DNA of 54,854 nucleotides, filler included, from Jimgerdemannia flammicorona (taxonomy: Eukaryota): the NCBI GenBank assembly GCA_003990765.1. It is 3 parts of 3 records of this genome, joined end to end, with 100 filler letters (N's around TTAATTAATTAA, not from the genome) between each part and the next. Parts side by side here need not be neighbours in the genome. Positions count along the whole stretch, not along the records: positions 1 to 18,219 come from RBNJ01002260.1; 2 more parts are not named here. One strand, given 5' to 3'. How positions within the stretch are numbered: position 1 is the first letter of the stretch; each line of letters opens with the position of its first letter. A program made the position numbers and the translations under genes. This document shows positions 1 through 32,495 of the stretch, one piece after another. Below the pieces are notes generated by a model. That model ran no database searches. It was not told the DNA's origin and saw nothing but the letters and a program-made list of their open reading frames with translations.

Positions 1-131
1 AAAAAAAAAAAAAAAAAAAAAAAAAAAACAGGTGGGCGATAAAGGAAGATTGGTAGTAATAGTATAGAGGTAAGTTGTGCGTCGGAATAAATATAACTAG
101 AAGTAAGAGAATCAACAAAATAACATCATAC

Positions 132-1341
132 CTTCTCCCACTGAACTTGATCTTGAAGACGAAGACCATCTCCTTTCATCCTCTTGTGGGGCTTTTGGTG
201 GTGGGGCTCTTCCATGTTCAGTAGATCCGACAGAGGAATGAACGGGTGAAGGAGCCACCGGTTCCGCAGATGCCAATGATGATGAGGTACGATGCGAGAC
301 GCCTGAGGATATAGAATCACGGAGCGACGACCTCTTGTAATCTGACGAGACGGAATGCCGTGATTCGTTGTCGCTGTGATCAACTGTGCGTCTCCCTAGT
401 TCTATCGAGCGCCTACGCGGGAAATTTGGATACGCTGGAGCTGGAGCGTCTTCGAAAGAGGAAATACTATGTCGTTTGGGAGTGTATGAAGCTGAGAGCG
501 AAATGTCGTAATTAAAGTTTGATTTCACTGAGGTATCTTGGGCGTCGCTCATGTGTGGGAAGGAGAGTGGCCTAGAGCCAGGAAGCAGCTTGCTGAACTC
601 CTCCTGTTTCAGACTCTGCAGCACCTCAGTGGGTAATCGCATCGGATACGCAGGACTTTCTTTACTTTCCATCGAAATTTTACTTCTCGAGGAACCCCGG
701 CTCTTGGAGGACGTTATCGAAGGGGTTTTTCTCAGTATTGCGTCAGGCGGGATCCCTTGCGGTGGGTGGAACTCGCCCCATTCGTCTGTACTGTCATCGC
801 TCCGGTCTCCTTCGTAGGAATTTTCATCTGCCAATGGCCTTCCATTCTGTGAAGGCATACGACTATGGGTACCGCCGAAGCCAGGCGGAACGTCAGATGC
901 GATAGACCCGTTTATAGGTGTAAGATTCTCTGTGGCTCTGCCTCGAGCACTACTTTGATGACTATCATCCCGTAGTTGTTGTAAAATGTTCATGGAGGGA
1001 CTCGGGCGGTCGTCCGTCAGAGACAGGGACGCAAGATCGTCGGTCCAGTCCTTGCGAGAGCCCCTACTGCCAGAATTCCGAGAGCGACTTGAATTTGAAG
1101 CGGGGGAAGACGTCACCAGCCTGTCGGCCGATGGCAAGACCATGTAGAGGTGATCGGGAAACTGAGGTTGGACGGTTGCGGTCTCGCGGGGGCGCAAATT
1201 TGGCGAGAGTTCGTCGACGATGTGTGCTGGGAAGTTCGGCTCCTCTCGTTCTTTCGACTTGTTGGAGAACCAACTGAACGAAGAGGATTCGGAGGCCACG
1301 GAGCTCACTGAGGGCCTCTTGGTGTGGCCAGTGGTCAACAT
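132..1341 (-). CDS. First coding exon of a Ser/Pro/Arg-rich, probably disordered protein of unknown function; the gene continues beyond the left edge
   Basis: About 400 open codons in GC- and CpG-rich sequence. ATG at 1341. Splice donor AAG|GTATGA at 132/131. No recognisable domain in this exon. Confidence 0.7.
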
Positions 1342-2705
1342 GGTGGTCTCCAAGGGTGGTCTCCAAGGGTAGAAAACACTAAGGGGAGGAGGAAAGGAGG
1401 TAGGGGCTAAGGGGTCGACAGAGCTCTAGGCATAGGCGCCGAATTTTGTTGTAGCGTTCACACCCTCTGCTCCCTTATCGGGGTGAAAACGCTCGTCACA
1501 CATGTGTGCAACCCACTCCCGTGCGCTGGGACCCGTCGATGTGATGCTCTCCCCCCCCTTTGTTGCTCTTCGGGTGTGCAACGGTGCAAGTAAGGGCCCT
1601 GCAGGACTCGTTCTCCTCGTCACCCTGACCTTGTCGCCACATTGGATATCGTAGCCTCTAATGTATGCATATCCGCAGAAATCAAGTGACGTGATGTTTC
1701 TCACTAGAGACACCTCATGCAGACTTGTCCGTTATAGGCACATAGGTAACATGAGGCATGCCGCAACAAAACCAGACAAAGTGAGCATGGCACTGCGGTG
1801 GCTTGGCGATCAGGATGATGTTGCCTTTCACGGATGTGCACATCTTTAATTGTAAACAGCAAACGCTTTGTTATCCTCGCGACTGCAACGTAAATTCTTC
1901 AGGTAAGCCCGCTGGTGTTTTTTTTTTTTTTTTTTTTTTTTCTCCGACTACCCTTTGCCATCGAAGCAGTGATTTCAATTTTGTACCCCGCAATGTTTTT
2001 CTGTCATATTCGGTATAGTCTGGATGGTTTGCAAAATGTATCAAATCTATTTTTCTCTAATAACTTTTCTTTATAATATATTGATTCAATCTTCATCAAT
2101 AGTATAAGTATATATTTTCAAGCTTAATTTATATTAATAAAGTGATATTTGTAATTAAAGCTTATTATTTTATTAAATAAGTATTAGAACAAATAAAGCA
2201 TATTATTTATTTGTTGATAAATAAAAAGATTGTTTAAATTTAGCTTTAATAATTAATATATTCTATAATATTATATTTTATAAAATAAATATAAAATAAA
2301 TAAATATTAAAAATATTAAATAATATTTATTTTATTAATATTTATAATATTTTACTAAAATTATAATTATTTCTTATCTAACTCTGATTTACTTGCATAA
2401 CTTTATTAATGAAGATTTTTGTTTATCAAATATAGAAAAGATTGCATTCATATTGACCAATAAAAATCATTAACTATCATCCAGTTAGAAGTTTATAGCA
2501 CGAAGTTGGGCAACAAGCCAAGCGTACTAAACCGCGCACGTTAAAAACAAACCAATGCAAATTTATACAGATGTGGCAACTTTGAACAGCAAGATACAAT
2601 GGAATCCACGGGAACTATCCCGTTTGGCATGCTGTATGTCATAATCTGCTTTGAGTTTATATCTTTTGTCAAAACATGTACATCGGTCTCAACCAATACC
2701 ACCAG

Positions 2706-5700
2706 TCAGCCCGTCTTTGCCTTTCTTTTCACTTCGGCTATGTCGTACTCGCTGAGGTTGCTCACACTGCTGATGGTCTCTATTTGTGGATATATCGTAG
2801 AGTCCTTTGGATAAGACGGTCCCGGGGCCACACGAAACATTGATCCATCGGTACCCTCCTCCGCACTCTGCATACTTGGGTTCCTAATTGACGAAGTAGA
2901 AGCAAAGGAGACTCCGTTATCTGTTGGTGAAACAAGTGGTGTCGCCACTTCAGGGTCATTTGTATGCGTGGGCGAAGGTGAATTTGTCGGAGATGGTGAA
3001 GGTGAAGGCGAAGGCGAGGGCGAAGACGATTCTGAAACCATTGTCATGGATGTGTTCTGGCGGTGGAAATCCCGCTCCAAATCAGACAGGAAGTCTGATG
3101 GGTCGGGGAGGCCCGAATCCATCTCACTATCCAGCTGGAAAATTGTTCAGTTGTCAATTATTTGTTCAAGTAGTACCGGTTCAGAATGTTTGTTCAACAG
3201 ATTGAATACGACATACATACATGCATGTGCATCCAAGGATGATCCTGCATATTGATTGGGCAAAAGGTTTACAAAAGGGTCCCGGACGAATACCAGCCAA
3301 AAATTCGTCACAATCAAGGAGATTATGAATCAACAGCAATGATCTGATGAAAACAAGTCATACCAGTGCTTCGTCCACAGTGGCGCGCTGACTTGGCTCG
3401 ACGGTGAGCAGCTTCCGAACTAGATCCTGTGCTATTATGAACAGATGGAGACAAATCATAAGCGTTATTAAATAAAATAAAAATAAAAATAAAAATCGGA
3501 GACAGCAATCAAACCCTGTGAATGCAAACCTTCTCTGCTGATATTGTCCCAGTGAGGGCTGGGGAAATCATATCGACCCTGCCGAATCTGATTCTGCATG
3601 CTCGGAGGTGCCAATTCCTCTGAAATATAGGTATCGAGAGCATCAGTTACGGATAAAGTTATTGTATCCGATACTTGTTTCCAACAGGATATATACAGAG
3701 CTCATACCACTGAAAGGGGGAAACCCGCACAAGCATATGTACATCATCACCCCACAACTCCATAAATCCACTGCCTTGTTGTAATTCCGTGACTGGGTGG
3801 GCGACAAAACCTCAGGAGCAACTTCAACAGATATAGAAACGTATATACGCATTAGAGCATGCCGATACAGATCTCTCAGTGTCAGTCTATCACTTGACTC
3901 ATATAAATGATCGCGGAGGGGCTCACCATAACTGGGGGTGCCACAGAGTGATTGCAGGAATGAAGCTTCACCGACGATCTTGGCAAGTCCGAAGTCGCTT
4001 ATTTTAATATGGAGAGTGCGCTTGTTTGCCAACAACACATTCTCAGGCTTCAGATCACGGTGAGCTACACCACGATCATGGAGATACTGGAAAAAAATCG
4101 AACGCATCCGAAAGGTATTTAGCGCCAAAGCATCCACCAGGAAAGCAAGGAAAAAATAGCATTGCCCATACAGAATTTGGGTTGGTAATGCAGTATGCGA
4201 CAGATACCTTAAGTGCTTGGAAAAGTTGGTAGAATACATGACGTGCTTCGAACTCGTCGTATTTGGATTTCGCAACGATGTGTTCAAAAAGTTCGCCATC
4301 TTTGGCACTACATAGAAAATGGAGGTGCTCAATCAGTAGCAAGCAAAGTGGACTGATTCGATGGTAAACGAATGGATTCATCATAGTTATGCCAGAAGTA
4401 CTTACAGCTCCAGGACAAGATATATGTACTTCTTCTCATCGAAAACGGTATGTATGGATATGATACACGGCTATAGGTTTTCAAAGCGGAAGGAGGTTCT
4501 CAGAATGCATCGGTCTCTTGATTTATCAGAAAAGAAGGCACCGTTAAAACACTTACATGGTTAACAGACATGAGAATGCTAATCTCTTGTTCTAGGCTGG
4601 CCGTCATCTTGGGCTTGGCGGCGAATTTACTCTTGTCTACTATCTTGACCGCAAATTTACGACCCGTGGCCTTGTGAATGGCGAGCCTCACTTGGGCGAA
4701 ATTACCGCTAAATATAAATGTTGGTCTTCGGCGTTAGCCACAGCTCTTGGAGAATGCATAAGGCCGAGGCCAAATTTTAAGGTACGCACTAAGAATAAAG
4801 AAGATAGAAACAAAGAATAAACCATATCTTGGCGGGCACGGCAACCCTCCATTAAGGTTCGAATACTTACCACCCAAGTTCATCCGAAAGTACATACTCA
4901 TCCTCGAATGACTATTAACGCACCAAAACAAAATTTGCATCATCTCTTTACATTCTATATTTGGCATAGTGCCTTCAAAAGAAACCAAAAATATGGGAGG
5001 TGGCGAACGATGTACAATACCTTGCCATCACCCTCCTGAGTTGGACGATGTGGCATCTTGAAGATGTAGACTGTTCGAGGTTTGCAAATGTGAACAAAAT
5101 GTTCATGTGAGCCATAAATCATCACGGACACTAGGTTGCGCAAGGCCCAAGCATTACTTTTTCAGATATTCGTAATCTCAGTTCATCAATATCATCCAAC
5201 ACGCTACTCCTGTGATCTTGAACAATCGGTTACAATTAAAATATCCTTACACCTATCATCGAACCGCTCTGAATCTCTCCTCGGATCATATTGTGCAAGT
5301 TGGATTTCGTCCCCGGGTGACAACATAAGCCGCCGGTTCCGGCCGAGCTTTCTCCCATTAATAAAGGTGCCATTGGAACTGGATAGCAGAGATACATGAG
5401 CATATATCGGAAGCTAGCACCGATACCCTAGCAAGAGCAGGATCTCAAATATTAACGGTTTGAAATGAATGGAATGTAATACGCACCTCAAATCCTCCAC
5501 AAATACACATTCTGTGGCGTGCTCCATGCCCGGAAGTATCTTGTATTCCTTGAAGATTAAGCAATGTCTATTGCTAATTTGATGATGTTTGAAGCTAAAA
5601 AAAAAAATTGATAAATCATGGTTAGCAGTCTCATAGGACCTCATCCGAGATATCAAGGGCCAAGTTGGCGAGATGTCTGCGGTTAGACCCATAGGGAAAA

Positions 5701-6146
5701 GGTTTCAACAATCTTCGGTGCGCAAAAACTACACCTCACAAGCTTGAATCCGGTTGCCGCAAGCTTAACCTCCCCTACAGCATTTGTCAGCCCATTAACA
5801 ATAACGAAGCGAGAAGTGGTTTTCAAGCTTACACAACGTCACACTCCTGGTGCCTTCCCATTAGATAGCCACCTCTGCTGCCAGAGTCACCCTCGACGGC
5901 CTGTTTGGTCAGATATAGAGTTTCGTGTTCGCTGCTGAGAGATGCCAGTATCCCCCACACGTTTTTCAAGTCCGGAGTGGCCATTATGTCAGCGGCGGTA
6001 TCGACGCGAGGCAAAGCCGCTTTAGCAGAAGTTGCAGAAGAGTTGACCGATTTCGTGAGTTTCGAGGATTTAGTATTGGGGTTTGAGGGTGAGAGGTCGT
6101 CAATGCGGGACCTCTTGCGTTGCGCCAGGGGAGTTGGGTTCTCCAT
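2706..6146 (-). CDS. FHA-domain Ser/Thr checkpoint kinase (Chk2/Cds1/Dun1 family), about 14 exons
   Basis: Spliced by hand with GT-AG introns. FHA motifs GRHQECD, ISNRHC and DLSSNGTFING. Kinase motifs LGCGNFAQV, AVK, HRDLKPEN, DFGLAK, LCGTPSYVAPE, DLWSCG and HPW. ATG at 6146, stop at 2706. Confidence 0.92.
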
Positions 6147-6375
6147 TTTTGCGAGCTCAGTGACTTTAGGCTGGCTGGCCAGCAACAAAGGTAACAAAAC
6201 TTTGGTGACTTAGATCGACTAACATGGTAGCCAATCATCTTTCCGAACATTATTATTGCTATCATTTTGTTTTGCTTAAGTAGAATTATAAGTTTTATCT
6301 TATTCTTATAATATTTCACTCAGAAGCTTGCCTATAGTAGTTATAATATGGGGCGTGCTGCAACAAAGTGAGCAT

Positions 6376-6385
6376 GTGACGTCAC
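6376..6385. promoter_or_regulatory. CRE/ATF-like palindrome GTGACGTCAC upstream of the kinase gene
   Basis: Perfect 10-bp palindrome about 230 bp upstream of the ATG. An identical site lies upstream of PSMG3. Confidence 0.4.
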
Positions 6386-7349
6386 TCAAGCATCAAGGCT
6401 CGATTTTATTTTTTTTAATAATAAAAAAAGAGATCAGAAAAAGTAGACTATAAACAGCATCAGCTTTGTCATGATTTTGTCTTCTTATTTGCTCATTGTG
6501 ACGAGCAAGTTTAACTTGTTTTTTTGCTTCTTTCTCTTCTTGTTTTGCTCAATATTCTGCCATAGCTTGGACAAAATCTTGATCTTTGAGATTGAAAATA
6601 GTAGTTTTGAGGTGGTAAATATTAGGGGCTAAAAAAAAAAAGTAAATATTAGGGGCTTGGAGGCTTCTATTAATATTATAATCAATTAAAACATAATTCT
6701 TATCATCTTTACTAGAAAATTTCTCATTTGTTTGTTTAATTATACTTTTTTTATTATTAATAAAAATATCAAAATTAGAACAAAGTTCAGTTATTTTTTC
6801 TCATTAATCAAGATCTTATTTTTCTTTTTCATACTTTGTCATTTCAGTTAATTCAAATCTAACTTGAGAAAATTTACCAAAAGTTTTTTCATTATCTAGT
6901 TTATTCTTTAAAATATCTTCTTTATCTTTTAATTATAAATATAAACTTATAACTAATAAATTACTAATCAAATATTTCTTTAAAGCTTATAATAAATCTA
7001 TAGCAATTATACTAGAGAAATTTTAAATCTTTCTTCAACTTTATAAATATTTATAAAATTTACTTCATTTAATATCAATATTACTTTTTATTATTTTTTT
7101 TAATCTTTTTAAGTTTTTAGAAAATATTTTCTCTTTTATTTTCTTTATTCAAAGAAATCAAAATATCTTTTACCTTTCTCCTACTACTTATAGATGATTC
7201 TATAATTGTATTCTTTCAAAATATATTAAAAAACAAGTCAAAGTAAATAGTAGTTTTTGAAAATCTATAAATTATTACTAGTTTTAATGATTGCAAACAA
7301 TTATTCTAATTATAAATTACTTTTAATAGTCTCTCTTTGAGTTTAACTT

Positions 7350-9140
7350 ATTCTTTGATGAAAGTATAAAAGAGAATAAATTTTGTTCTGATTATTTATA
7401 TTTTTAGAGTTTTGATAATATAAATAATTTTATTTATTAAGAATATAGATTAAATTGGTTTTAGATAAGTAATATCTTTGAATTTATCTCAGATAAAGGG
7501 GTAGATATTATGGTAAAGATATTTCTGATATTTCAATTCTATAGAAAGAGATACTAGTATTAGAAATAACAAGATCTTGATTTTTTCTCTAATTTTTAAA
7601 GTCTCAGATTTACTATTTTTTAAGTTTAAATTCTTAAAATAGATTATTTATAACTTCTTGAGTTTTGATCACACTAAAATAATAATGAGTAAAAAGAAAA
7701 TATTGAAACTTTTATATACTATTCAATTTCTTAAAGTAAATCTCTAAACTACTTAAGATATCAAAATATTGAAACTCTTTATTATTATTATAATACTGAT
7801 CTTAATTTAGTCTAATAATATTAGATCTTTTTACTATATCTATGATATGATCTATATAATTTACTATGGTTTTATAATAAAGCCTTTTAATTAGACCAAA
7901 ACTACTATTATATTTGAATTTAGTATGGTCCAGAACTATGAAGTTGAGTTTAATATTTTTAAATTACTAAGTACAGATAAAATCAAAGAGTAGTATTATT
8001 TTTATTTTATTTATCTGCATTATTATATAAGTGATTTTTAAGTACTTTTTACCTTAGTTCAATTACTTAATTTCATTAAAGACTAGACTAAAAGTACTAT
8101 TCAGACCTTTTCTAAGAAGTTTATTCTTATCAAAAATATAATTAATTTGCTCATAGATTACTTTATTTTAGATATTAAATAAGTATATCTTATAGATACT
8201 AAGATAATATATCTTATCAATTTATTAATCTGAATAAAATATATAGACATTTTGAGCTCAGTCATAACTTTAATATATAGTAGCATTAATACTACACTAC
8301 TGAGCCTTAATATTTATTAGTAAATATTAATTGATAAGTTTTCTTTATTCTTTTGCCAACTTAGTGTTTTTGTTATAATAATTTTATTCTAATTTGATTT
8401 TGATAAGATGCTCTTTATATCTTTTTAATAAATCTTGGACCTTTTCCTCTTTGCAAGTTTTGAATTATAAGTCATTCTATAAGTATTAATAAGTATTATA
8501 TAAATTAGTTCAGAGACTCATGATTTGAATTTATAGAGTTAGCTGATGTTATAATTTGTAAAAAAAAAAATCATATTTAAGAGTATACAAAGAACTATTC
8601 TCTTCTGAACTAACTAGAAAGTCATGATGAACAAACTTATAGTTTATTTTACTAACAAAAAGATAATTAATTGAGTTATATGATTAATGTTTCTAACTAA
8701 ACTAGATAATCTATATACTTTAGTATAATTCAAGAGAAAATTCTTTACTATAGTAGCTATATTTATATCAATCACTATCTTAGTTTTTCACTAAGGCATT
8801 TTTTTTATATTACTATAGAGCTATAATAAAAAGGTATTATTTAGCAAATAATTTCTAATATTTTCAAAATAATTATTGCTAATATCAAGTATAGTATAGG
8901 TTTTCTGATAAAGAGGTATATTATAATTCTAGTAATAAATAGTTCTCTTATTGACTTGAGTTCTATTCTTAAAATATCAACTAATATTGATTATTTCTTC
9001 ATCCATGAACTTAAGCTATACTATCAAAAAGATATCTTATTTAATTTTAGTTAGAGCTTAAAAGGCTTTCTACAATTTAGCAAACTCATCTTTAGGTATC
9101 TTAAAGAAGTAACTACAACTATAGCCTAGTTTTAAAAAAT
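7350..9140 (-). pseudogene. Degenerate Sola-like (DDD) DNA-transposase relic
   Basis: Minus-strand reading through stops gives KIPKDEFAKL, IQIMSL.TNLYNTY, KEHLIKIKLE.NYYNKNTK, SYD.AQNV, KGLNSTFSLV and LNFIVLDHTKFKYNSSFGLIK. These match remembered Sola-type motifs (SPRTDLCDTC, YDWAQ, CDN..GQNKN, GHTKF.CD.SFG). Boundaries are approximate. Confidence 0.6.
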
Positions 9141-9899
9141 GGAGAATTTTCTCATATTTATTCATATTTCTATTATTTACTATATAATATATTTTATATA
9201 TAGTTTATCTGGTTTTGTTAAATTTTCTACTATAGTAAAGTAGTCTCTATATAAAAAATACCTACTTATATGAATCTAATTTATATTTGAATTTACTATA
9301 GAAGCTCTTTAAAAATAAATTACTATTGATTCATACTAGTTATTTAGCAATTGCTCCTGAAGAAAACACATTATGAATATTAGTCTATTTTTTTTGGTAG
9401 TATATAAAAATATTCCTATATTAATCTATAAATTCTTATACTTTCTTTTCTTAGTTCTTGAAATAATTCTACCAATGTTCTTTTTCTAACTTTTTCTCAT
9501 AGATTATATTTTTTTAGTCTGATAGCCTGTACTTTTTAGTTTAAAAATATATAAAGCAATCTTTTTGCCTTGCTCTTGCTTTAAAAGAGAATACAAAGTA
9601 CTATAGTTTTTGGGATCTGATATAGATAAGTTTCATATATTTCAATTTTATATATATGAGGATCTCTATAGATTAAGCTATAGTTTTGTACTTCTTTTAT
9701 ATATAATATATTGAATAATTCAAAAACTCTATAGTTTCTAGACAATATAGTCCTTTAAAAAATAGTAATATATAGATTTATACTTAAGTAACTATAATAA
9801 TTCAATATACTAACAGATCTGCTTACAATAATCTATATCCTTTCTGAATGGTCTTGAAATTATCTAAGGCTAAGTGAGTGACTCTGAATAGTAAGTACA

Positions 9900-11960
9900 T
9901 AGCTCCTACTTTCTTTTTAAAATATATAGATTTCTACAAATACTCTCAGATAAATACAGGATGCTTAACTTTTTTAGATTTCTCTGATATTCTCAATATA
10001 TATCTTAGAGATATATTCTCTAGGTAAAGAGAGTAGTGTCTGGTTTGCTTCAAGTGAATGGTACACTGATGACCAGAATAGTGCTTCCAGATTCTTTCTT
10101 GTTTAGTCTACCTATGTCTGGATTAATATACTCTATATTAAATACTAATAATAGATAATTATTTCTATATTTATATTAAATATCCTATCTTTAAGAATAA
10201 GATAATATAGATTGTAGTTGGTATCTATAGTAGATCTGTAGGAGACTACAGGATCTGAAAAGTTGTGATCTGACTAAATTGATAAATATACTTATATAGA
10301 ATATCCATTATATAGATATAGGCTTTTCAATCTGAGATTTTAAAAATTATATCTAATTAAAATATATTTCTCAAATCATCAAGCAAGCTTACCAAATACT
10401 TGTATTTTAAATACTTTCAACTCTTTAAAGATATTTATATTACTATATTCAGCCCTCTTGGCTATAATATTAAGTATATTCTTAAGTCTTTTCTATATCT
10501 TGACTTTGTCTTTATTAAAATACTTAAGATCATTCTCATATAATGGTCTACTAACTTCATATATAATCAACTTCTAACTAAGAAGGAGAGGATTATATCT
10601 GTCTATTAACCAGTCTTTCAGCATATACTGGATTCAACTTTTGCACTAAAATAAAGAGATATCTAGACTAATCTTACTCTATTTTAAGTAGTACTCTCTA
10701 TAGAAGAGATTCTTCAATATTAGTGAGATCACTTCTATGACTTATATTACCTTACTCATATTTTTATCCAAAAGTGGGTTTGGATCTTCAGTCTAGAGAT
10801 CTGCACTATAACTTTCATATTCAGTATATTTGTATTTATAAATATAGTCAGAAATATATAGAAGTTACTTATAAGTTTTAGTAGATTTTATAGATAAATT
10901 GAAGATCTTTTTGAAGGGATAGAGTTACTTTTAAGATATATACAGAAAGCTAATGTAGTTCTTAGTTAATATTCTAAATAGTCTTCTATTATTGTATTGT
11001 ATTAACAGTTGATATATAGAGGCTAGATATGTAGAGAATGAATAACAAAATATAGTTACTTAGTTATCTAGAGTTACTAACCAGTCTTTGACTTCATCAT
11101 CCAGCATAATCATCTTCATGTACACTCTTCTTTATAGTTTCTTCCAGACTGCTGAGAGAAACCAGCTTCTAATAGAATTACTTTATCTCTCCTTACTCAA
11201 GTCTAGAATATTATAAAAGATAGCTCTGTTTAGAATAGCAGCATTATTTGTCAAATAAATACTTTCTAGCTCAAAATATAAAGATATATCAATAATACTA
11301 ACTTATAATTATTTATATCTTTCTGATCAAGCATCTTTGCAGTAATATCAATTCTATTGATAATATGTATAAGAGATATAATCCTATATAAACAAAGAGT
11401 TTAATTGAATTAAATTCTATCATATTTTTTCATCTAGAATATATATCTAATAATAATCAATTATACCACTCTATTAGTCTGCCCTTATATCTTGTTAGTC
11501 TCTATTATTGCAGCTATAAAGTTATCCACCATATCACTGCTAGCATTATCCTTAGTTATGCCTTTAAATTCTCCATCAATATTTGTGGTCTATATATATT
11601 TAATTTATAAGATGTTTAGATTCATATCCTTTCTTTTAGTACTAACAGAACTCAAATTCAATAGGGAATCCAGTTTTATTTTGTTCAGATCTTTATATGC
11701 TTCATTCCCTATAATACTATAATTAAGAGTAAACTGAATCTATAAAATATAAGCAACAAACAGAGTTAATACCAATTTTAGACACCAATGTCCTAATATA
11801 ATATTAGTGAAGAATATGTACAATAGTCTACTCAAACTTCCCCTTCAAAAGCTCATTTTCTGATATAACTTTTCTCAGCATCAACTTCTCTCCAGAACAC
11901 AATTTCACTTCTTCTCTCTGAGCTTAGCACTATATAACAAAATAAATATCAACAATAGAT
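9900..11960 (-). pseudogene. Degenerate intron-containing gene, possibly with a PD-(D/E)xK restriction-endonuclease-like C-terminus
   Basis: Minus strand reads ILDLS..SIRSWF..VW, EVISLILKNLF and IIYEVSRPLYEND.KYFNKDKVKI.KRLKNILN..ELKVFKIQVF. A GTAAGC..CTCAG intron follows, then KAYIYIMD..YQF..F. Boundaries are approximate. Confidence 0.4.
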
Positions 11961-12309
11961 CCAAATTTAGAAATAGTGAAGTGAGTCATCAGAGGCTGTG
12001 AATGAACATTGTTCTTAGTATAGAGACATTGTCTCTAACCTTCATGCAGACTTAAGATGGAGTCCACTGTAGAAGTCTTCATAACTAGCTAATAGTATCA
12101 GACCCTTACTACTTTTGCTATTGAAATTCTTTTGTATACTGCTCTCTTGATTAATATATATATACATATGATATGTATAATATAAACATCTATACAAGAA
12201 GGCCATACAATAGAACTATACAGAGCTACTAAGCTGACTAAGTTCTATTAGATATATGACAAATACAGATATAATTATGTAATCTGTTTCTCACATTACA
12301 GATTCCAAA

Positions 12310-12995
12310 ATAATACTTCTTTCTATCTATTAAGCATCTAAATATCTCAGAGTCTCCTCTAGGACACTTCATCACTGACATGCTCAAGGAAAAATTAAAG
12401 TTTTAAGGATGTTCTTCTTATATCTTCTACTCAAACCTTTACCCAATTACACTCCACCTAACCTCTGGATTAACCTGTGGCTGTATCTATATATATATTT
12501 CAAGCCCAAAACAGTGGCAGGACCTTGAACAATAAAAACAGCATCTCTAGCAGCTTTACTTATCTCATTATATCATTATTAATATCACCAGTAGTATCAA
12601 TTTCAAGAGACCTAGCCTTAAAATTTTACTGAAACTCTTATATCAAGGGTTGCTAATAGAGATGATACTTATCTTCTACTACTTACACACCTATATAAAT
12701 ATAATACTCATATCTCTTTCAACTTGATAGATCATAGTTACTTACTATGATTGACTTTATCACTTTATCTATGATCTCTTCAAATATATCTTTATTCTCA
12801 ATAGTACCAAGATTATCATGGTTCATGTAGAAGATAATATATCAAACTCTACAGCTCAAGAACTATCTGAGGATATCTTTGTGATCAATACTATCTTTAT
12901 CTACTAGATGTAGGATTGAAGAGCAGCAGAAAACTGATAGTACTATAGAGACTAGTAGTAATATATAGCAAGGACAAGAAGAAGATTGGAGTGAG
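12310..12995 (+). pseudogene. tnpA: IS607-type TnpA serine recombinase relic (N-terminal MerR-like HTH + resolvase domain) with a putative 69-nt intron at 12662-12730
   Basis: HTH: LSIY*ASKYLRVSSRTLHH*HAQGKIKVLR. Catalytic region: GCIYIYISSPKQWQDLEQ*KQHL..INITSSINFKRPSLKILL, equivalent to YARVSS..Q..DLERQ..DIASGINF.R.GL, with the Ser codon at 12500. C-terminus: IIVTYYD*LYHF..QELSEDIF.INTIF, equivalent to VVAHRDRLCRF..ELxED. Confidence 0.85.
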
Positions 12996-13580
12996 TTTAA
13001 TGTTTGTGAAAAAGAAGAACAATATATATAGTTTGATAAGAGTGATGAAGATTAAGATATAGAGAGATGGTGAATGAGTTGTACTAGATGAACTAAGTTA
13101 TATAATAGCTATAAAAACTCAAGTTTTTATTATCAATCAGATTCAATCTACTGGTTTTATAAGCTCTGATAGCTAAATGATATATGTTTTCTATAACATA
13201 TCATAGATAAGCTCAAAAAAATAAGCAAATGAATTACATATACTCAGAACTATATATCATTCTTCTTTCTGACTAAGTTAAATAAATAGATCTAAATAAA
13301 AAAAAACTCCTTTAATATTCAATCTATATATCAATAGCATTAATATAAATACTTTTCTATATAATTTTATATATATATCTTATATAACTTTTTGAAGTTT
13401 CTATATACAATTTTATATTGTATTTTTTTTTTTTTATATATTTTATATTATACATATCATACTAGTTTTAATATAAATGATCAAAATAGAGAAAATGATA
13501 TATTTGAGATTATATAAATTGGTAATAATATCATGAGCTTTATATAAATTGACCATATTTCCTAAGATTGGTATTCTAAT

Positions 13581-14204
13581 ATAACAGTAGACCCTAAGTG
13601 CCTATATATTTCTGATATAATACTCTCTCACCTATAGTTATAGTAAGATAGATATAAAAAATATATAAAAACTTATTTATCTCTATCTTGCTCTTAATGA
13701 TCTTATCTCTCAGACTACTAAAGCTCTACTTGAAAGTACAATTCTATATACTGTGCCCAGACTCACATGCAGCAGTAGATCTACAACCTCATCAATAAGT
13801 ACTACTATAAGACTATACTTTGGCTTATCTATACCTTTGATATCATTATCATTTCTCTTTTCAATAATAGTTAGATAGCTATAAGGCACCATCAAAAGAT
13901 CACCAGCAGGACAGTCCATTTGATGATGATATGGTCACATAAAAGGTTCAGAGAGAGGTTTTCATCAAAAGCTGAAAAGTATGACAAATAAATATATATA
14001 GTCTCAGAGATATATACAAGTAAGACCTATAATTGATATGAGTAGATCAATCATAAGCTAGGTGGGAAGAAGGTATTCTGTTATTATGAGTGTGGCTTGA
14101 ATATTGATAGAGACATCAATGATGTATGCAGGATCTTTCTTCAGGTTTTATTGAATAGTTGCATAGAAGATAAGATATTCACATTTGACAAATTGATAAT
14201 GTAA
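13581..14204 (+). pseudogene. tnpB: TnpB/Fanzor2 RNA-guided nuclease relic (RuvC + zinc ribbon); the N-terminal half is not readable
   Basis: RuvC-I ITVDP/SAYIFLI*YS (DPGVRTFLTWYS; Asp at 13590). Then IYNLINKYYYKT..FDIII, ITSRTVHLMMIWSHKRFRER..KA, VSEIYTSKTYN*YE (E at 14007; TSKTCxxCG) and KLGGKKVFCYYECGLNIDRDIN (DRD at 14106-14114). Confidence 0.9.
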
Positions 14205-14288
14205 GAAGGTTTTAGATAGCTTTTTGCAAAGTTAAATCTAATGATGCCTTTATTTTTCTACATTACATATGTATTAGGGATCTAACAG
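14170..14288 (+). ncRNA. Candidate omegaRNA (right-end RNA) scaffold of the Fanzor2 element
   Basis: Long imperfect hairpin at 14198-14264 (AATGTAAGAA/TTCTACATT, AAGG/CCTT, TTAGAT/ATCTAA, AGCTTT/AAAGTT). It lies between the tnpB end and the element terminus, the canonical position. Confidence 0.5.
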
Positions 14289-14585
14289 AAAACATAGCTG
14301 CGATGACAATGGCAACAGCACCAGGGTGGGGGGGGCAAATGCGCGCCTGTGAGTTTGCCAGGCTTTGTTGGGTGGGACTGTCCTTAAGAGCACCAGTTGG
14401 GCGTGAACAGACAGTGTTGGCTAGTAATGGCCAATGTTGTCTATCAGTGTCCGACTCAATCCATCCGATAGGCGTTGAGTTCGTGTCTGACTGATCAAAA
14501 GTATCCATTACTGAGTGAAACAGGGGAGAGAAAGAAGCATTGAACGCAACGCGAAAAAAAAAACATACTCGCCAAGCCATCATGC

Positions 14586-14595
14586 GTGACGTCAC
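14586..14595. promoter_or_regulatory. CRE/ATF-like palindrome GTGACGTCAC upstream of PSMG3
   Basis: Perfect palindrome about 100 bp upstream of ATG 14693, followed by a TATTAAATA element. Confidence 0.4.
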
Positions 14596-14692
14596 ACTGT
14601 TCACTTTGTCTATTAAATATAATTACATAATAATTTTCAAACACCAAGAAATAGTGACAAAGTCTCGTGTACGCTCCCGAAAACACACCACA

Positions 14693-15203
14693 ATGGCCGA
14701 TGTCGCGTCCTTTCCCGTCCAGAACCGCCAGCTCGCCCGTTCTATCGACGGCGTGCACACCGACGTCCTCGTCTCCGCCTTTGCCGACAGGATTCTCGTC
14801 GTCGCGACTCAGTATCGCAAAATCGGAAGCCTGGTGAGTCTCGAGCGGTTCGAACTTCCCCAATCGTACTCCCCTCCGTCTAATCCGCGCCTCCCACACC
14901 TTCGTAAACCCTTCCTTCACTCAGCTCCATACAACACTAGACACTACTTCACAGTTCTCTTCCACGCCCTCGACCGTCCCCACAACCACCCACTTCCTCC
15001 TTGGCTCCTCGACCACCATACAGAGCGGAGGTCATCTCTTGTATGCCTCGCATATCTCACAAACCATTGCTGCTATGAACCCAAGCGAGAAGCGACCCGT
15101 GCTCTTGGGTATCGCACTCAAGGACCTTGGTGACGACAACCTTGCGCGAAAGCGCGTGTTTGAACAATTAATGGAGATGATCAAAGAATGCAGAGTGTGG
15201 TGA
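14693..15203 (+). CDS. PSMG3: Proteasome assembly chaperone 3 (PAC3), 2 exons (14693-14833, 14925-15203)
   Basis: MADVASFPV..IDGVHTDVLVSAFADRILVVATQYRKIGSL | ..FLLG..RPVLLGIALKD..IKECRVW*. Intron GTGAGT..CAG. Confidence 0.88.
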
Positions 15204-15414
15204 TGTGTAAGGTTTGTATGGTATTTGTACGTGTTGGTAATTGGTACAAATGATGACGAGCCGGTTGAGCCAGCAATTGCATTGATATGATTGATATGCT
15301 GCCAAAGGCGAGTCATAATAAACCCAAAAAAATACATTCCCCTCTCACGAATATTCGGGGGGTTTCTTTAATTGCCCTACTGCGAATGAAGTATTCTATG
15401 TATCTGTAATTACA

Positions 15415-17460
<2,046 letters not shown>

Positions 17461-18219
17461 GTTTTTTGTCCGCAGAGAATTGAGAAATGTTTCTAGTATT
17501 TCAGTATTTCATTAACATTCGATACGGCCACGTGATGTTTGTGCTACTATGGAAAAGGGGCATCTGCTCGATAATAATCATCGACATCCCGAATTCCCCT
17601 TTCCCCTCGCCACGCTATCAATGTACAACTCAGTGATTCCAAGAAGGAAAGACAGGTAATAGGAATGCAATATTCCATGAAAGAGCAAGAAAACAAAAAA
17701 AAACAAAAAACAAAAAAACAAAAAAATTATAAGGAACAGACGCGAAAGATAATGATACAATTTGTACAAGGCAACTCCACTGGCGTGCAGAAAATTGGGA
17801 AAGAAGTGCAGCCAATACGTTCATTCGTTTCGAGTAAAGAAGCAGATAAGACGGTAGGCTAGAGTTATAAGATGAGTGTCCCCTTTTCCAAGCCAGTCAC
17901 TTCTTCCCGCCACGATATCGGAGGTTGTGGAGTCTATCTAAAATGGGCGAAGCAAATAAAGGAGGTAAAACTTAAAAACCGACAATAAGCGAAAAGGCTA
18001 TGTATATATAATGCGTGTGGATGGATTGTACGTGTTGTGTGAAATGTATGCGAAGAGGGTGGTGTAAATGTCCGGGAAATTCGGTGAATGGAGTAATTCG
18101 GATAAAGCAATAAAAGTGGTGGGCAAAGCGGGGACAAACAGCTCAAAAAATCCAGCAAATCACGCATCCATGCCACCCTGCCGCGACCACCGACCACTTG
18201 TAACCAAAAACACACAAAA

Positions 18220-26836: not shown

Positions 26837-28061
26837 GGGTGGCTTGGATGACTTGATTTGGTGGCAAACCAAATCCAGATTTCGCTATATTCTGATTTCC
26901 TTGTTAGAAAAAGAGGCAGCATGAAATTTCTAAGAGATAGAGCTATCTTCTTGAAACATGGTGTGGAGATAGCCTCAAATTACTAGAAAATCATTATCCC
27001 AATCTCTGTTTCTTGAAATATCTCTTGATTGTGGAGATATTTGGACTTGAAGTTTTGATTAGGATTTTAGAAGAACTTGAATAACTTGTCAATGGATTGG
27101 AGAATGGTCATCAGCTTTGGATATATTGTTGCTGATATCCCTGGCGATTTTAGGAGATGTTTGCTCTCAGGGATCCTTTGTGGTTCTCCAGATATAGGCT
27201 AGTTTCTCATGGTAGTGTATTTTGAGGTATCTCCTGGACGTTTTGGTGTACATCTCTGCGAAGAGAGGTTATAATCTCGTTAATTTCGGTGGTAATGTTT
27301 TTAAATATCTTGGAAAGCTCTGTTCCAAAGGGGAGGTCCATGGGGTTCGTATTGAGCTCGAACAATTCAATCAAAGCATGGGAACCAGTCTCCGGTTTTG
27401 ACTTGATTTTACTGGGGTAAGGAATTTGGGTCAACTGAGACTGGAATGTTTACTGAATTCAGTATGTGGATCTTTACTGGGGTCATTCTGACTGGGAATT
27501 CTGGTGTATAGGTCTTCCTGTAATTTGCTCAACTGGGAACTAGGAATGAATCTTGTTCAACTGGGAAATGTTCTAGGTGGCTTGAATGGCTTGATTTGGT
27601 GGCAAACCAAATCCAGATTTCTCTATACTGACTGATTTCCTTGTTATGGAAAGAGGCAGCATGAAATTTCTAAGAAATAGAGCTATCTTCTTAAAACTTC
27701 ATGTGGAGATAGCCTCAAATTACAAGAAAATTATCCTGATCTCTGTTTCTTAAAATATCTCTTAGTTGTAAACTTGAAGTTTTGATCAGAGTTTTGGGAG
27801 AACTTGAATAACTTGTCAATGGATTGGGAAATGGTCTTCAGCTTTGAATTAGTTGTTGCTGAGGTCTCTGGAAATTTTTGAGAAGTGTTTGCTCTTGGGA
27901 ATCCTTGGTAGTTCTCTAGATATGGGCTAGTTTCTCACAGTAGCATATTTTGAGGTATCTCCTTGACATTTTTGTGTATATCTCTGCAGAAAAGAGTCAT
28001 AATCTCATTAAACTTAGTGAGAATATATTTAAGGATGTTGGCAAGCTCTGTTCTAAAGAGA
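26837..28061. repeat. About 490-bp direct duplication (26837-27334 and 27575-28061) separated by CAACTGGG-type minirepeats
   Basis: Co-linear copies visible by eye (GGTGGCTTG..GGCAAACCAAATCCAGATTTC..AAGCTCTGTTC). The second copy is cut by the Penelope-like insertion. Confidence 0.8.
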
Positions 28062-31000
28062 AGTGGAAGAAGAGGGTCCAGCAGGAGCTATGGGAGCAAA
28101 CCCAGAGCCAGTGTCAAAGTGAACAGAAGATATGTAGAAGAGTATATATAAGGGGGATAAACAAAGAACATAACTGAAAATACATCAGCTGTTTATTGCT
28201 ATGTAAAAATGTGGTCCTTATATACAAAATATGATATCCCAAAAGGGAGGATGTGCCACAACTTGGGGTGAACCAAATTAGGCACCAAATGACTACTAGA
28301 GATAAGTAGAGATAAAGAGAGAGCCAATTCCAGTTGCAGGATAAAAATCACAAATAAATACAAACAAAACAAATTCAAATTAAGATTAAAAAATATCTGC
28401 AGACCCTGGAGGGGTGAGCATAAGTGAGGGGTGAGGCCAAATGGAGAAAGCTGCAGTGAGCCCAAGTGAAGTGAGAGGCTGAAGATAGTAGAGGGGAGCA
28501 GAGTGAAGGCTGAGACCCCAGAGTGAGTGCAAGACCCCAGAGGGGGTAAGGATGTTTTTTAATCCTCTCTGGAAGAACCAGAGGCATCAAAAGATAATGA
28601 AAATGCAAAATAAGAGTAATGGAATAGAGAAGAAACAGAAGGAAGATGCAAATGAGCAATAAGAGAGTGTTGAGAAAGAGATGAAAGTCTATGGTGGGAA
28701 AGTGAAGAGTGCAGGACAGTGTCAGGGCATTGTGTAACCCAGAAAGCACAATCAAATGGTACAATAAGAATTGGGGGAGGGAAAGAAGAGGGGGTTCAGA
28801 ATGGGTAAGGGGGGGAGGGAGGAGAGAAAAGAGGGGTAAAGAGAAGAGAGGAGGGAAGAGCAAACAACAGACCATTCAACAGAAAAATTGGGTAGACACA
28901 ATGATGGACCATGAAGTTGCCAAGAACTCAAACAGCAGACACTCAGTCAGAATGACAGGAGCAGCATAATGTAAGACAACAAATCTAATCTCAAATACAT
29001 TCAAGAAGAGTGCGACAAGGGTGATTAGAATAGAAGTCAAGGAACTGTTGGGAGTATGGGAAGTGATAATAAACAATAGTTCAGAAGGAAGAAAGAGAAA
29101 TAGAAAGATCCAAAAAGGGGATACTAGTAGTACTATATACCTAGGTAATAGAATAATGGAGAGGGTAGATGTTATGAAATATAATAGAAATATCAATACC
29201 AGTAATAATGAGAATAATAAAGTCATCAATATATCAGCAAAAGAAGATATCCCCAGTCCAGAACACAATTTAAAGAGGTGAAGAAGGATCATATATCACA
29301 TGAAGTTCATGGGCCAGGCCAATTAGGATAGTAAGAGTAGGGGTATAATTCATTTCTATAGTAATACCAAAAGTCTGATGAAAGGAGCCAAGGGCCAACT
29401 TAAAGTAGTTGAAGTCACACACAAGGAGGGTGAGCTCAATGATAGAAGCCAATGAGACTGGGGAATTCAGAGGGAAGACAATGGAACCCAAGAAGTAGAG
29501 ACAATCATTAATCTTATTAAAGCAAATTATAGTATAGAAAGAGGAGAAATCACTAAAGATCAGATGGGAAAAATGGTGAACAGACATAATGGTGGAGCAA
29601 AAGAGGGCGAGCTCCTGAGTATCATGAAGAATAGTGTACTCAGGCCCAAGATGGTGTTGAAGTAAAGCCATCCAACAGAGAAAGAAGTGGGATACCCACT
29701 TTGAAATCTCAGTGGTCAGTGAATTATATATAGCTATAATGGGACACCAAGCCAAAACGAGCTTGTGGACTTTTGGAAGAGTATAAAAAACTGGAAGATG
29801 AATGTCTGGAGAGGACAAAGAGTCCTGGAAGATGTTAAAAATAGGGTTTGTAAAAGGAGAATTCAAAAGCAATCTGGTATGAGTCAGAGAAACCCAGAGA
29901 AGAGTAAGAATCTCATCTAATTTAAGAGCACTAGACTCATAAGCCACAGCTTGAAGGAGGGCAGAAAGGCCATCAAGATAGAGCAATTTAAGAATAAGTG
30001 CAAAACTCTAATTCTTATTAGTGACTGTAAGCAAATGCAAAGACAATTGCTTGACTGATTTAAGTGCAGTATGCATGGTATAGTCCAAAACTAAGCAAGA
30101 GTGAGCATGTCCAGAAATGGACAGTGAGCAAGCCATGTTGAGAAATATGTAGTATAAAGAGACATTGGGAGGGGGGACCCAATCACTGGAGATATAATAG
30201 CAAGAGGGCATCTCACTATGATCCTCAAAAAAGATAGCAAGGTCAAGAGTATGATGAAAACATATAAGATGAGCTGGATTGGTGAGAGAGAATTGTGAGG
30301 GAGTTGCAGGGAAAACAAAACAAGGCCCCAGGGAAAGGGCAAAGACTTGAAGAGAAGAAAGAGAGCAGTCAGCTAAAGAAAAAGGAGGAGACAAAAGTAT
30401 GCTAAGAGAAGAATAAACCTAAAAATTTAGGACAAGCAACTAGGAAAGGTGAAGGGGGGGTAGTATGAGGAATCACTCAGAGTGTACTAGAAGCAATGAT
30501 GGAATCCAAGAAGGAACAGAGACACTGGAAGAGAACCAAGCTAGGGGGAAGTTTAAGAGCAAGAGGTCTTCTCTTTCCCTCTGACTTTTTTTGAAGGCAG
30601 TGAGTCTGACAAGCAGAAATATACCCCATCAGAGTACCAGATCTTACAGCCACAGACTTTTGTACAGCCCTTACATTTAGAAGCACAGAGAGAGAAGGCA
30701 GAGGAGGAGCCAACAGAGGAGTCAGAGGGAGAGTGAGCAACCAAAGGAGCAGCAGTGCAAGGGACACTACCATAGGAGCAGACAGATTTGGCTGGATGCC
30801 AATAGGCATGGTGGAGGTGACCAGAGCAGACAGTATAGAGCTAAGCTCCAATGGAGCAAGAATTAAGTTGGCAGCCACACTTAGAAGCAGGGGGAACAGA
30901 GGAGGCCTGGCAGGAGAGAGGGATCAGGAAGAAGCTGATGAAGCCTTATTGGGCTTGGCAGGGATCTTAGCAGGGGCCTTGGTGGTAGCAGTAGCAAAGG

Positions 31001-32495
31001 AACAAACCTCAACATGAGCAACAGTATGAGCTTCAGCATAAATGGCCTTAGAGACCAAAACTTCAGAGGAGGCAGATAGGGGAGCAGTAGTGGTGGTATA
31101 AGCAGAAGTGACAGCATATAATGATTTCTACTCATAAAGTCAAGTGACAAAAGAGATACTAGTGAGAAGAAAATGACAAATAGCATCAATGTCAGCAGCA
31201 GTAAAGAGAATGTCTTGGATGGCAAAGCTACAGAAAGGAGCAGTGTCTGCAAAATGGGAAGAGGTAAGAGCCACAAAAGAGACATAGATATGGTAGAAAG
31301 AAGTAGAGGTAGCAGCAGTAGTAGTGGCAGCAGTATTGGTGGTAGTAAGCTTGGCAGCAGCAGTGGCAGCACAACCTCTTCAGAGAGGGCTTGGTGGTGG
31401 GCCTTGGGGAGAATAGAGTAATGGATGGTGGGTGGAGCAACAATGTTGACATTATGGCAGAGATGAGTCTCTTTGGCAGAGAGGGCAAGAACTGACTGGA
31501 ACTGAGTGAGGAGTGGATGACCAGATGGACAAAGGTCCAAAGAGAGGAAAAGGATAGCAGATAAGATATAGATCTTGAATGAGACAGTGGTAGGGATAAA
31601 AGCAGGGGGAAGGAGAGGAGGAAGAACCTTGTCCATAACCTTGTCAACAGCAATAGAGGCCCCAAGAGCAGATGGTATAGTAGTGGAAGAAGAGGGCCCA
31701 GCAGGAGCCATGAGAGCAAACCCAGAGCCAGTATTAAAGTAAATAAAAAATATGTAAAAGAGCATATATAAGGGAGATGAATAAAGAATGTAACTAAAAA
31801 TGTATCAGCCATTTATTGCTAGATAAAAACACAGTCCTTATATACAAAATACAATATCCCAAAAGAGAGGATGTGCCACAACTTAGAGTGAACTGAATTA
31901 GAAACCACATGACTGCTGGAGATAAGTAGAGATAAAGAGGGGGCCAATCCCAGTTGCAGGATAAAAATCACAAACAAATACAAATAAAACAAATCTAAAT
32001 CGAGATTAAAAAACATCCACAGACCCTGGAGGGGTGAGCATGAGCAAGGGGTGAGGCCAAATGGAGTGAGCTGTAGCAAGTTCAAGCAAAGTAAGGGGCT
32101 GAAGGCAGTAGAGGGGAGCAGAGTGAAGGCCAAGACTCTAGAGTGAGCATGTGACCCCAGAGGGAGCAAGGATGTTTTTTAATCTTGATTTGGATTTGTT
32201 TTGTTTGTATTTGTTTATGATTTTTATCCTGCAACTAAGATTGGCTCCCTCTTTATCTCTACTTATCTGTGGTTTCTAATTTGGTTTGCCCTAAGTTATG
32301 GTACATTTTCTCTTTTGGGACATCATATTTGTATATAAGGACTACATTTCTACATAGCAATAAACAGCTGATGTATTTTTGGTTATGTTCTTTATTCATC
32401 TCCCTTATATATACTCTTCTACATATCTTTCATTTGCTTTAACATTAGCTCTGGGTTTGCTCCCATAGCTCCCACTGGGCCCTCTTCTTTCACTA
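28062..32495 (-). mobile_element. Penelope-like retroelement with pseudo-LTRs; no GIY-YIG endonuclease visible
   Basis: Direct pLTRs at 28062-28564 and 31682-32184, plus an inverted partial copy at about 32170-32495. ORF1 from ATG 31711 (MAPAGPSSS). RT motifs FYTLPKVHK..CPII, DFSSFYTI, NYF..HQTFGITIE and YIDD (29222-29233). Confidence 0.8.

Follow-up and report, generated by a model that had tools for sequence, protein, structure and literature searches.

In intact elements of the IS607 family, the transposase TnpA is a serine recombinase with an N-terminal DNA-binding helix-turn-helix (HTH). It moves the element as double-stranded DNA, by excision and insertion, and neither terminal inverted repeats nor target duplications are involved. 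The nuclease TnpB or Fanzor2 binds a guide RNA of about 200 nt that comes from the 3′ end of the element and extends into the flank, and its RuvC site (Asp, relocated Glu, Asp) cuts guide-matching DNA beside a short motif; in bacteria, cutting by TnpB aids the persistence of the element. Here we describe what is best explained as a dead copy of such an element, with its recognisable genes from about position 12,310 onward in a 54,854-nucleotide stretch of DNA from Jimgerdemannia flammicorona (GenBank assembly GCA_003990765.1; hereafter referred to as the window). The window joins three parts of three records with 100 filler letters between each part and the next, and the element lies in the first part, positions 1 to 18,219, from RBNJ01002260.1.

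Fanzor2 proteins encoded within IS607-like elements were described in 2013, four ascomycete yeasts being among the hosts (Bao & Jurka, PMC3627910). The available part of Gilbert & Cordaux 2013 reports IS607-like sequences from 14 eukaryotes, including 6 of 177 ascomycete genomes, all six of those named being yeasts (PMC3673617), and in the words of Saito et al., Fz2 is ‘found broadly in fungi’ (PMC10432273). A fungal IS607 element with Fanzor2 is of a kind already known, and the window copy is a further member of it. Our results support the presence of an IS607-type TnpA beside a Fanzor2-type TnpB, killed by transition mutations, within eukaryotic DNA. Taken jointly, they are best explained by a single dead IS607-family transposon copy of the eukaryotic Fanzor2 type, a reading to which we assign a probability of about 0.85; the element may once have been autonomous, although the N-terminal half of the nuclease is not recognisable in this copy.

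Two adjoining genes read through their stops

TAA, TAG and TGA were translated as X throughout. When the stops are read through in this way, positions 12310–12964 give an IS607-type TnpA, in which a serine recombinase comes after a MerR-like HTH, and positions 13590–14168 give the C-terminal half of a Fanzor2-type TnpB, with RuvC and the zinc ribbon, directly downstream of tnpA and on the same (+) strand. This combination had been proposed in a first-pass annotation made from the sequence alone, and it was upheld on every direct test. The features referred to below are the following; labels such as P0370 are our working names for related proteins.

12310–12408, + strand: N-terminal MerR-like HTH of tnpA, in the frame of 12247, by alignment with P0370
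12479–12661, + strand: serine-recombinase catalytic domain of tnpA, part 1, in the frame of 12245, by our own TnpA profile
12662–12730, + strand: insert of 23 codons (69 nt) in tnpA, at the site of a fixed spacer in relatives
12731–12964, + strand: catalytic domain of tnpA, part 2, and C-terminus (QELSEDI..RAAEN), by our own TnpA profile
12965–13589, + strand: unrecognisable AT-rich DNA of about 620 bp at the place expected for WED and REC, with no profile match
13590–13725, + strand: RuvC-I, the remnant of the DPG motif and a shifted segment; Asp-Pro at 13590–13595, then the frame of 12247 (about 13597–13725)
13734–14168, + strand: RuvC-II, RuvC-III and zinc ribbon, in the frame of 12246, by PF07282
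14169–14297, + strand: hypermutated 3′ non-coding stretch, with the first in-frame stop at 14202 and a composition change point at 14297
14298–14475, + strand: nearly unmutated 3′ part of 48–66% GC, homologous to the read-through tails of relatives

In the HTH, 19 of 33 residues are identical to residues 1–33 of P0370 (E 2.9e-6 when 120 proteins were searched), and 29 of the 31 aligned residues are compatible with P0370 if T may derive from C and A from G; the match to Pfam MerR was weak (E 0.067). Because of this N-terminal alignment, position 12310, now ATA, is probably the start codon of tnpA, in preference to the alternative ATG at 12256. The frame changes by one base between the HTH and the catalytic domain. 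NCBIfam NF033518 (transpos_IS607) matched 12470–12964 with E 3.1e-10 and 39.9 bits, missing the curated cut-off of 110; since the query is a stop-riddled fragment, with 13 stops in 165 codons, the low score reflects decay rather than non-membership. The catalytic piece also matched P0177 (E 1.2e-17) and all of the 120 IS607-type (MerR-plus-Resolvase) TnpA relatives compared. Its best match among the solved IS607-family catalytic domains was ISC1926 TnpA in the PDB (E 8.8e-5). The closest tnpA relatives, P0370 and P0328, have the domains MerR plus Resolvase. In our own TnpA profile, built from the tnpA segments of 112 relatives, positions 3–63 aligned with 12485–12667 (E 4.4e-12) and positions 58–125 with 12719–12931 (E 3.1e-8); P0370, P0328 and P0316 aligned individually with 12479–12661. 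The Ser-Ser of the YARVSS motif is preserved at 12500–12505, where YIYISS of the window aligns with IYARVSS of P0370 and P0328, and codon reading indicates that the replacement of Ala-Arg-Val by Ile-Tyr-Ile is attainable by transitions alone. The HTH-first serine recombinase that the first-pass annotation had seen through the stops is located at 12310–12408 (HTH) and 12479–12964 (catalytic domain).

The two parts of the catalytic domain are separated by the 69-nt insert. At this site, 101 of the 102 relatives having both anchor motifs carry a fixed spacer of 16 residues. Only P0370, which is among the two relatives closest to the window, departs from this: its insert there is 33 residues long, with Val (GTN) as the first and Gln (CAR) as the last. 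The window insert now reads AT...TAG, and GT...YAG is possible before G>A mutation. These features raise the possibility, which we regard as a lead, that the insert is the remnant of a phase-0 spliceosomal intron; likewise, the insert of P0370 is possibly an intron left in by the gene caller. A tandem duplication was rejected as the origin of the window insert, as no duplication was seen at the nucleotide level (462 of 1000 shuffles were as good).

For the nuclease, the codons of the predicted RuvC triad were checked and found to be GAC at 13590, GAG at 14007 and GAC at 14112, exactly where the first-pass annotation had placed the D, E and D of a RuvC protein. Its description of a whole protein did not hold, as nothing ahead of the DPG motif is detectable. 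This motif is represented by GAC CCT at 13590–13595, followed by AAG or, after a one-base shift, AGT, both of which can be reached from Gly by G>A changes. The reading shifts by one base after the DP and returns before 13734. Within the shifted segment, 13609–13725 is identical to residues 197–235 of P0287 at 18 of 39 positions and transition-compatible at 36 of 39, as compared with 18 and 20 in the controls. Asp 13590 stands exactly 48 codons ahead of the start of the C-half alignment, the same distance as in P0004, and homology to the relatives stops a few codons upstream of the DP.

The remainder of the C-half, 13734–14168, matched PF07282 above its cut-off (E 4.7e-9) and NF040570 with E 9.4e-6. 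A search with this segment returned 2613 proteins at E values of 1e-3 or below among 1.84 billion representatives, the best at 5.3e-28, and it scored 136.8 bits against our own profile of 46 full-length relatives (positions 224–365 of 375). It is identical to P0182 at 75 of 145 residues and contains 5 stops within its 145 codons. The canonical RuvC-II Glu site is occupied by Ser. The relatives have Pro there (IIIPPFN), and Pro to Ser is a C>T change, in line with the earlier surmise that the Ser had once been Pro. Glu 14007 lies six residues ahead of the first CxxC position (14028), at a distance from the first Asp of 139 codons, compared with 139–141 in nine relatives, and DRD, with the RuvC-III Asp, is at 14106–14114. 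The zinc ribbon, also claimed earlier, retains its spacing of 14 residues between the Cys pairs; its codons at 14028, 14037 and 14082 are TAT and that at 14091 is TGT, so that Tyr has taken the place of Cys at three of the four positions (TGY>TAY). In total, the wreck comprises 13 stops in the catalytic piece of tnpA, 5 stops in the C-half of the nuclease, three frame changes and the loss of three of the four zinc-ribbon Cys residues.

The published Fanzor/pro-Fanzor pattern fits 197 of the 244 relatives of at least 300 aa. Among solved structures, the window's own nuclease piece matched PDB 9B0L (ApmFz2) only (E 7.4e-7). ApmFz2 also matched P0004 (9.7e-24) and P0287 (1.3e-21), while P0004 matched ISDra2 TnpB at just 4.4e-3. 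In the available part of the structural report, 9B0L is a mimivirus Fanzor2 with the triad D324, E467 and D501, the Glu being relocated (PMC11832414). A DPG motif and a RuvC-II Glu in the relocated position are given as Fanzor/pro-Fanzor features in the accessible portions of that report and of Yoon et al. (PMC10711439), in agreement with the first-pass view of the shifted Glu as a Fanzor signature.

The N-terminal half of the nuclease was not recovered. Its expected place, 12965–13589, includes a stretch at 13300–13550 in which GC drops to 6–18%. Positions 1–180 of the family profile found no match in 12965–13589, and tblastn gave the same result. In a transition-aware, frameshift-tolerant alignment, residues 1–191 of P0287 and the N-halves of P0295 and P0300 scored within about one standard deviation of shuffles, whereas the positive control of the same alignment, residues 190–240 of P0287 against 13560–13760, scored 137 as compared with 22.6 ± 2.9 for shuffles. 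Nor did either strand of the rest of the window yield an N-terminal half. As the C-half may have been up to 82–84% identical to P0287 and P0182 before mutation, an N-half, if present, would be expected to be visible. The nuclease thus reads as a partial gene in which WED and REC are not detectable. We also observed that P0182 and P0288 share an N-terminus that diverges from that of the full-length P0287 upstream of about ‘QQPQRDHPRRK’; some of the relatives may be 5′-altered copies as well.

In the six-frame profile search of the whole window, nothing besides the element scored better than E 1.4, and neither blastn nor this search found further copies of the element in the window. There is no open reading frame (ORF) of at least 150 aa between 4332 and 14540, so that an ORF scan overlooks the element, as had been noted of the ORF track at the outset. 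The window contains split eukaryotic genes, encoding a protein kinase, a Kelch protein and an FAD monooxygenase, and stop-broken Ty3/Gypsy pol pieces. Together with the adjoining tnpA, they place the nuclease in a eukaryotic genome next to an IS607 TnpA, which is the residence expected of Fanzor2.

Hypermutation and the ends of the element

Repeat-induced point mutation (RIP) is triggered by duplicated sequence and, to our knowledge, is known from fungi only. To score the damage, a mismatch was counted as compatible if the residue of the relative could be reached with T deriving from C and A from G. With transitions allowed, the agreement of the nuclease C-half with P0182 rose from 75 to 122 of 145 residues, as compared with 82 and 83 in the transversion controls and 77 in the reverse direction. 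Of the 70 mismatches, 47 were explained by T from C and A from G, 7–8 by the transversion controls and 2 by the reverse direction. The same transition pattern was obtained against four other nuclease relatives and P0177. For tnpA, the agreement rose from 65 to 109 of 127 residues with P0328 (controls, 74 and 76) and from 70 to 115 of 146 with P0370. The sites that had necessarily changed numbered 112 (74 G>A and 38 C>T on the shown strand); 60 of them are now in TpA, against a background of 247 of 636 (39%). Dominance of C:G>T:A changes with a preference for CpA is what characterizes RIP, and by this pattern both genes are broken by C:G>T:A hypermutation of the fungal RIP kind. The usual RIP thresholds are a TpA/ApT of at least 0.89 and a (CpA+TpG)/(ApC+GpT) of at most 1.03. 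The 7–11 kb block passes both of these classic indices. The element passes the first (0.99) and fails the second (1.27), and since it satisfies one index only we call the process ‘RIP-like’. This mutation pattern is the chief sequence-based pointer to a fungal host; an Atlas query with a host ORF added weak fungal leads (scores 0.87–0.88).

The composition of the region changes at 6668 and at 14297, and the AT-rich block is continuous between these points. The nuclease half has a GC content of 24–46%, and at 14297 the value climbs from 26% to 66% over a span of 50 bp. Left of the element, 6668–12245 is a 5.6-kb AT-rich block of 18–28% GC, in whose six stop-read frames no Pfam family was found.

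The element ends differ from those first suggested: neither 12245 nor 14288 is an end of the element. Imperfect terminal inverted repeats, which had been claimed between these limits, were at chance level (310 of 1000 shuffles scored equally), and they were not significant in a purine/pyrimidine-collapsed alphabet either. That none was significant is consistent with the IS607 family, which, according to the available part of the source, has no terminal inverted repeats and no target-site duplication (PMC6188088). A 17-nt direct repeat, TTTCTnACATTACAnAT, was observed at 12287–12304, just upstream of the likely tnpA start, and at 14255–14271; its significance is marginal (43 of 1000 shuffles), and it could be a candidate transposase-binding motif or a product of chance. 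The 8-mer ACATTACA, found near both ends and at only these 2 places in the window against 2.5 expected by chance, is likewise marginal. The claim of a structured right end was not confirmed, as 14120–14295 showed no unusual folding (z +0.89; 167 of 200 shuffles folded as well). Folding of 14298–14500 was not significant (z −1.17), and a search of 11500–15000 against Rfam gave no match at E values of 1 or below. The unmutated part contains a 15-bp hairpin at 14409–14442.

The right end was instead approached through the relatives. The ORFs of P0182, P0288 and P0287 extend 85–107 residues past the conserved protein end, and these tails match the window at 14328–14480 (P0182, 32 of 46 residues; P0288, 31 of 42; P0287, 20 of 28, in another frame). 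Because P0182 and P0288 match in one frame and P0287 in another, the tails are non-coding DNA that has been read through. The match of all three relatives stops at 14468–14480. Beyond it, the last 32 residues of P0287 have no downstream match (126 of 200 shuffles were as good), and P0182 and P0288, identical at 343 of 355 residues, differ at both residues after the shared end (QSIR). A continuation of the P0287 tail past 14473 was considered and rejected as not significant; its five-residue HCxLC match is at chance level. The flanks would then differ among the relatives, and the true right end lies probably at about 14468–14480, some 180 bp beyond the end first given. The conserved 3′ non-coding part of the relatives, as estimated from alignment gaps, is about 220 nt long, and 14298–14475 is probably a candidate guide-RNA (omega RNA or fRNA) scaffold. 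The scaffold of ApmFz2 is given as about 205 nt in the available part of its report (PMC11832414).

Relatives, and the proposed origin and silencing

The closest relatives of the nuclease, obtained from a search seeded with P0004, are P0182 (369 aa), P0288 (355 aa) and P0287 (492 aa, full length), all three of which are present as intact relatives in public collections. The chytrid protein P0180 (KAJ3297308.1, Borealophlyctis nickersoniae) is also among the kin. Loci were scanned with an alignment of 12 relatives as the query, which yielded 78 giant-virus and 79 bacterial loci, the latter for the most part belonging to cyanobacteria, Chloroflexota and Thiomargarita; of 284 candidate stretches in giant-virus contigs, 249 held up on confirmation. 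An IS607 tnpA immediately preceded the nuclease gene, in the same orientation, at 67 of the 79 bacterial and 45 of the 78 giant-virus loci (112 of 157 together), counts that include loci cut by contig ends. The expectation, stated beforehand, that IS607 elements pair TnpA with TnpB thus agrees with these loci. A metagenome scan with P0004 gave 4 distant loci, none of which had tnpA. In a tree of 96 C-terminal segments, which is of low resolution and does not include the P0182 cluster, the window falls outside a clade (support 92) that contains 24 of the 30 bacterial rows. It sits beside P0004 and P0005 in a basal polytomy with no supported clade.

Several points weigh against the reading as a RIP-killed IS607/Fanzor2 element. 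The NCBIfam scores fall far short of their curated thresholds (39.9 for a cut-off of 110, 25.1 for one of 100), as is to be expected of a decayed copy. Some 625 bp separate tnpA from the DPG motif, a distance that suits a full-length gene, yet N-terminal homology is absent from this gap, and loss, replacement and scrambling would look alike here. About 46% of the inferred sites are outside the TpA context, and one of the two RIP indices fails. The mutated zone and the element do not coincide, the former running 5.6 kb further to the left and ending about 175 bp before the proposed right end, and no second copy lies in the window to attest the supposed duplication. The 3′ region has neither an unusual fold (z +0.89 and z −1.17) nor an Rfam match.

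Some of these points bear on alternative explanations. That the two proteins are chance resemblances produced by reading AT-rich DNA through stops is supported by the low complexity of the region only. It is opposed by E values down to 5.3e-28 against 1.84 billion proteins, by the occurrence of two distinct families in the expected order and strand, and by the emptiness of the control frames and of the neighbouring AT-rich block, and we regard it as having next to no probability. It is improbable, to a lesser degree, that the element came as cargo of an integrated giant-virus fragment or of another transferred block. The family is indeed common in giant-virus contigs, with tnpA at 45 of 78 loci, and the 5.6 kb to the left are unidentifiable, but no viral domain is recognisable in that flanking block and the window nests in no viral or bacterial clade of the low-resolution tree, which lacks the P0182 cluster. 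Moreover, the kin include the chytrid P0180 and, by reading of one supplementary row, FZ2 of Diversispora eburnea, and the closest tnpA relative bears the intron-like insert.

Two further alternatives retain the identity of the element. In one, the right end is at about 14297, P0182, P0287 and P0288 come from a single chromosomal site shared by related strains or species, and 14298–14475 is host flank common to them. The boundary of mutation would then coincide with the end of the element, as expected if the element was the repeat, and the insignificant fold of 14298–14500 is in line with this. Yet the matches of all three relatives stop at 14468–14480 even though their ORFs run on, the final residues of P0287 match nothing downstream, P0182 and P0288 differ immediately after the shared end despite their near-identity, and the 3′ length conserved in the relatives suits the ApmFz2 scaffold as given in the available part of PMC11832414; we consider an end at 14297 unlikely, though far less so than viral cargo. 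Slightly more credit, still well short of even, is due to the possibility that the element was never amplified here, being a single inherited or transferred copy that was hit by RIP spilling over from the repeat block at 6668–12245. The AT-rich block is unbroken from 6668 to 14297, the 7–11 kb part satisfies both RIP indices and the element one, the window has no second copy, and the mutated zone disagrees with the element at both ends. Against spill-over, the GC jump at 14297 is abrupt, whereas a leak should fade with distance, although this is an expectation only, and four family members with apparently different right flanks suggest that the family was mobile.

According to the reading that we prefer, the element, or most of it, would once have been duplicated in the genome and so have set off RIP. 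RIP-like mutation would then have killed it by introducing stops, frame changes and losses of zinc-ribbon Cys residues, while the last ~175 bp, the likely guide-RNA scaffold, would have escaped, the element reaching about 14470. The lineage would have been resident in eukaryotes for some time, as suggested by the intron-like insert in tnpA.

Other features of the window were noted in passing. The Ty3/Gypsy pol pieces (protease, reverse transcriptase, RNase H and the integrase zinc domain) lie at 42933–45359 on the + strand, in another low-GC block. At 27–32 kb the GC skew is +0.25 to +0.35, with an AT skew of +0.33 to +0.39 at 28–32 kb, and under this skewed composition a chain of minus-strand ORFs without Pfam matches extends over 27000–32200. 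The GC skew is −0.48 to −0.56 at 47–49 kb and reversed at 49–54 kb (+0.31 to +0.54). A run of 176 N bases from position 18220 onward was read as an assembly gap.

Comparison with described IS607 and Fanzor2 systems

We tentatively propose, giving it less than an even chance, that the window copy belongs to an intron-bearing IS607/Fanzor2 lineage adapted to fungal nuclei, with its nearest kin on record in early-diverging soil fungi, which transposed in a RIP-competent fungus and was then silenced by RIP, its native guide-RNA scaffold and right end being preserved. If this is true, the preserved scaffold and the intact relatives of the P0287 type would amount to a ready-made fungal Fanzor2 system, and the locus would document the killing of an RNA-guided transposon by genome defence. 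The locus would also extend the range of IS607/Fanzor2 to an apparently RIP-competent fungus, of which we found no report in the literature searched. It illustrates that protein-based censuses of RNA-guided nucleases overlook copies scrambled by fungal genome defence, and that reading through transition-made stops recovers them. It further leads to close relatives that are intact in public data, including a full-length one (492 aa), suggests that the tnpA of the lineage has gained an intron, and leaves behind an unmutated candidate guide-RNA scaffold. Knowledge of the Fanzor2 mechanism is unchanged; the value of the locus lies in distribution, in the interplay with RIP and in a lead to one more Fanzor2.

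The literature searched contained no link of Fanzor to RIP, or of IS607 to filamentous ascomycetes. In the available part of the pattern-match table of Yoon et al., the rows for Penicillium, Aspergillus, Trichoderma and Leotiomycetes look like unrelated proteins. Eight names were tried in supplementary file 3 of Saito et al., and Fusarium, Aspergillus, Tuber, Morchella, Neurospora, Colletotrichum, Penicillium and Trichoderma were not present there as fungi.

IS607-like elements in yeasts and Ustilago hordei are, in the available part of Gilbert & Cordaux 2013 (PMC3673617), prokaryote-type IS607 in fungal chromosomes, patchy in distribution and often present as fragments. None of them is described in that part as RIP-mutated, unlike the window copy. 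With the bacterial IS607 elements encoding pro-Fanzor TnpB, as presented in the accessible portion of Yoon et al. 2023 (PMC10711439), the window shares the gene order and the site composed of DPG and the relocated Glu. It differs from them in its eukaryotic setting, in the intron-like insert of tnpA and in its position outside the main bacterial clade.

The Fanzor2 proteins of early-diverging fungi (FZ2 branch of Saito et al. 2023, PMC10432273; P0180) belong to the same sub-family. P0180 shares 48% identity with P0004 and 43% with the mutated C-half of the window. The row for Diversispora eburnea (PMC10432273, supplementary file 3) has, by eye only, the strings VCSLDPGVR and LDDLISRT in common with P0287. 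Those proteins are, however, predicted as intact and come from fungi in which RIP is not known, whereas the window has unmutated DNA of 45–50% GC and RIP-like blocks, features that by themselves would suggest a different, probably ascomycete, host.

The fullest likeness is to the Fanzor2/IS607-like elements of eukaryotes and giant viruses, as far as the available parts of their descriptions go (PMC3627910; ApmFz2, 9B0L, PMC11832414). The window shares with them an HTH-first tnpA upstream on the same strand and, with the ApmFz2 type, the DPG motif, a Glu six residues before the zinc ribbon, DRD and a long conserved 3′ non-coding part; that no significant terminal inverted repeats were found in the window is consistent with this type. 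Unlike the ApmFz2 type, the window copy is dead, its nuclease has no detectable N-half and an intron-like insert interrupts its tnpA; the intact relatives themselves have low identity to ApmFz2.

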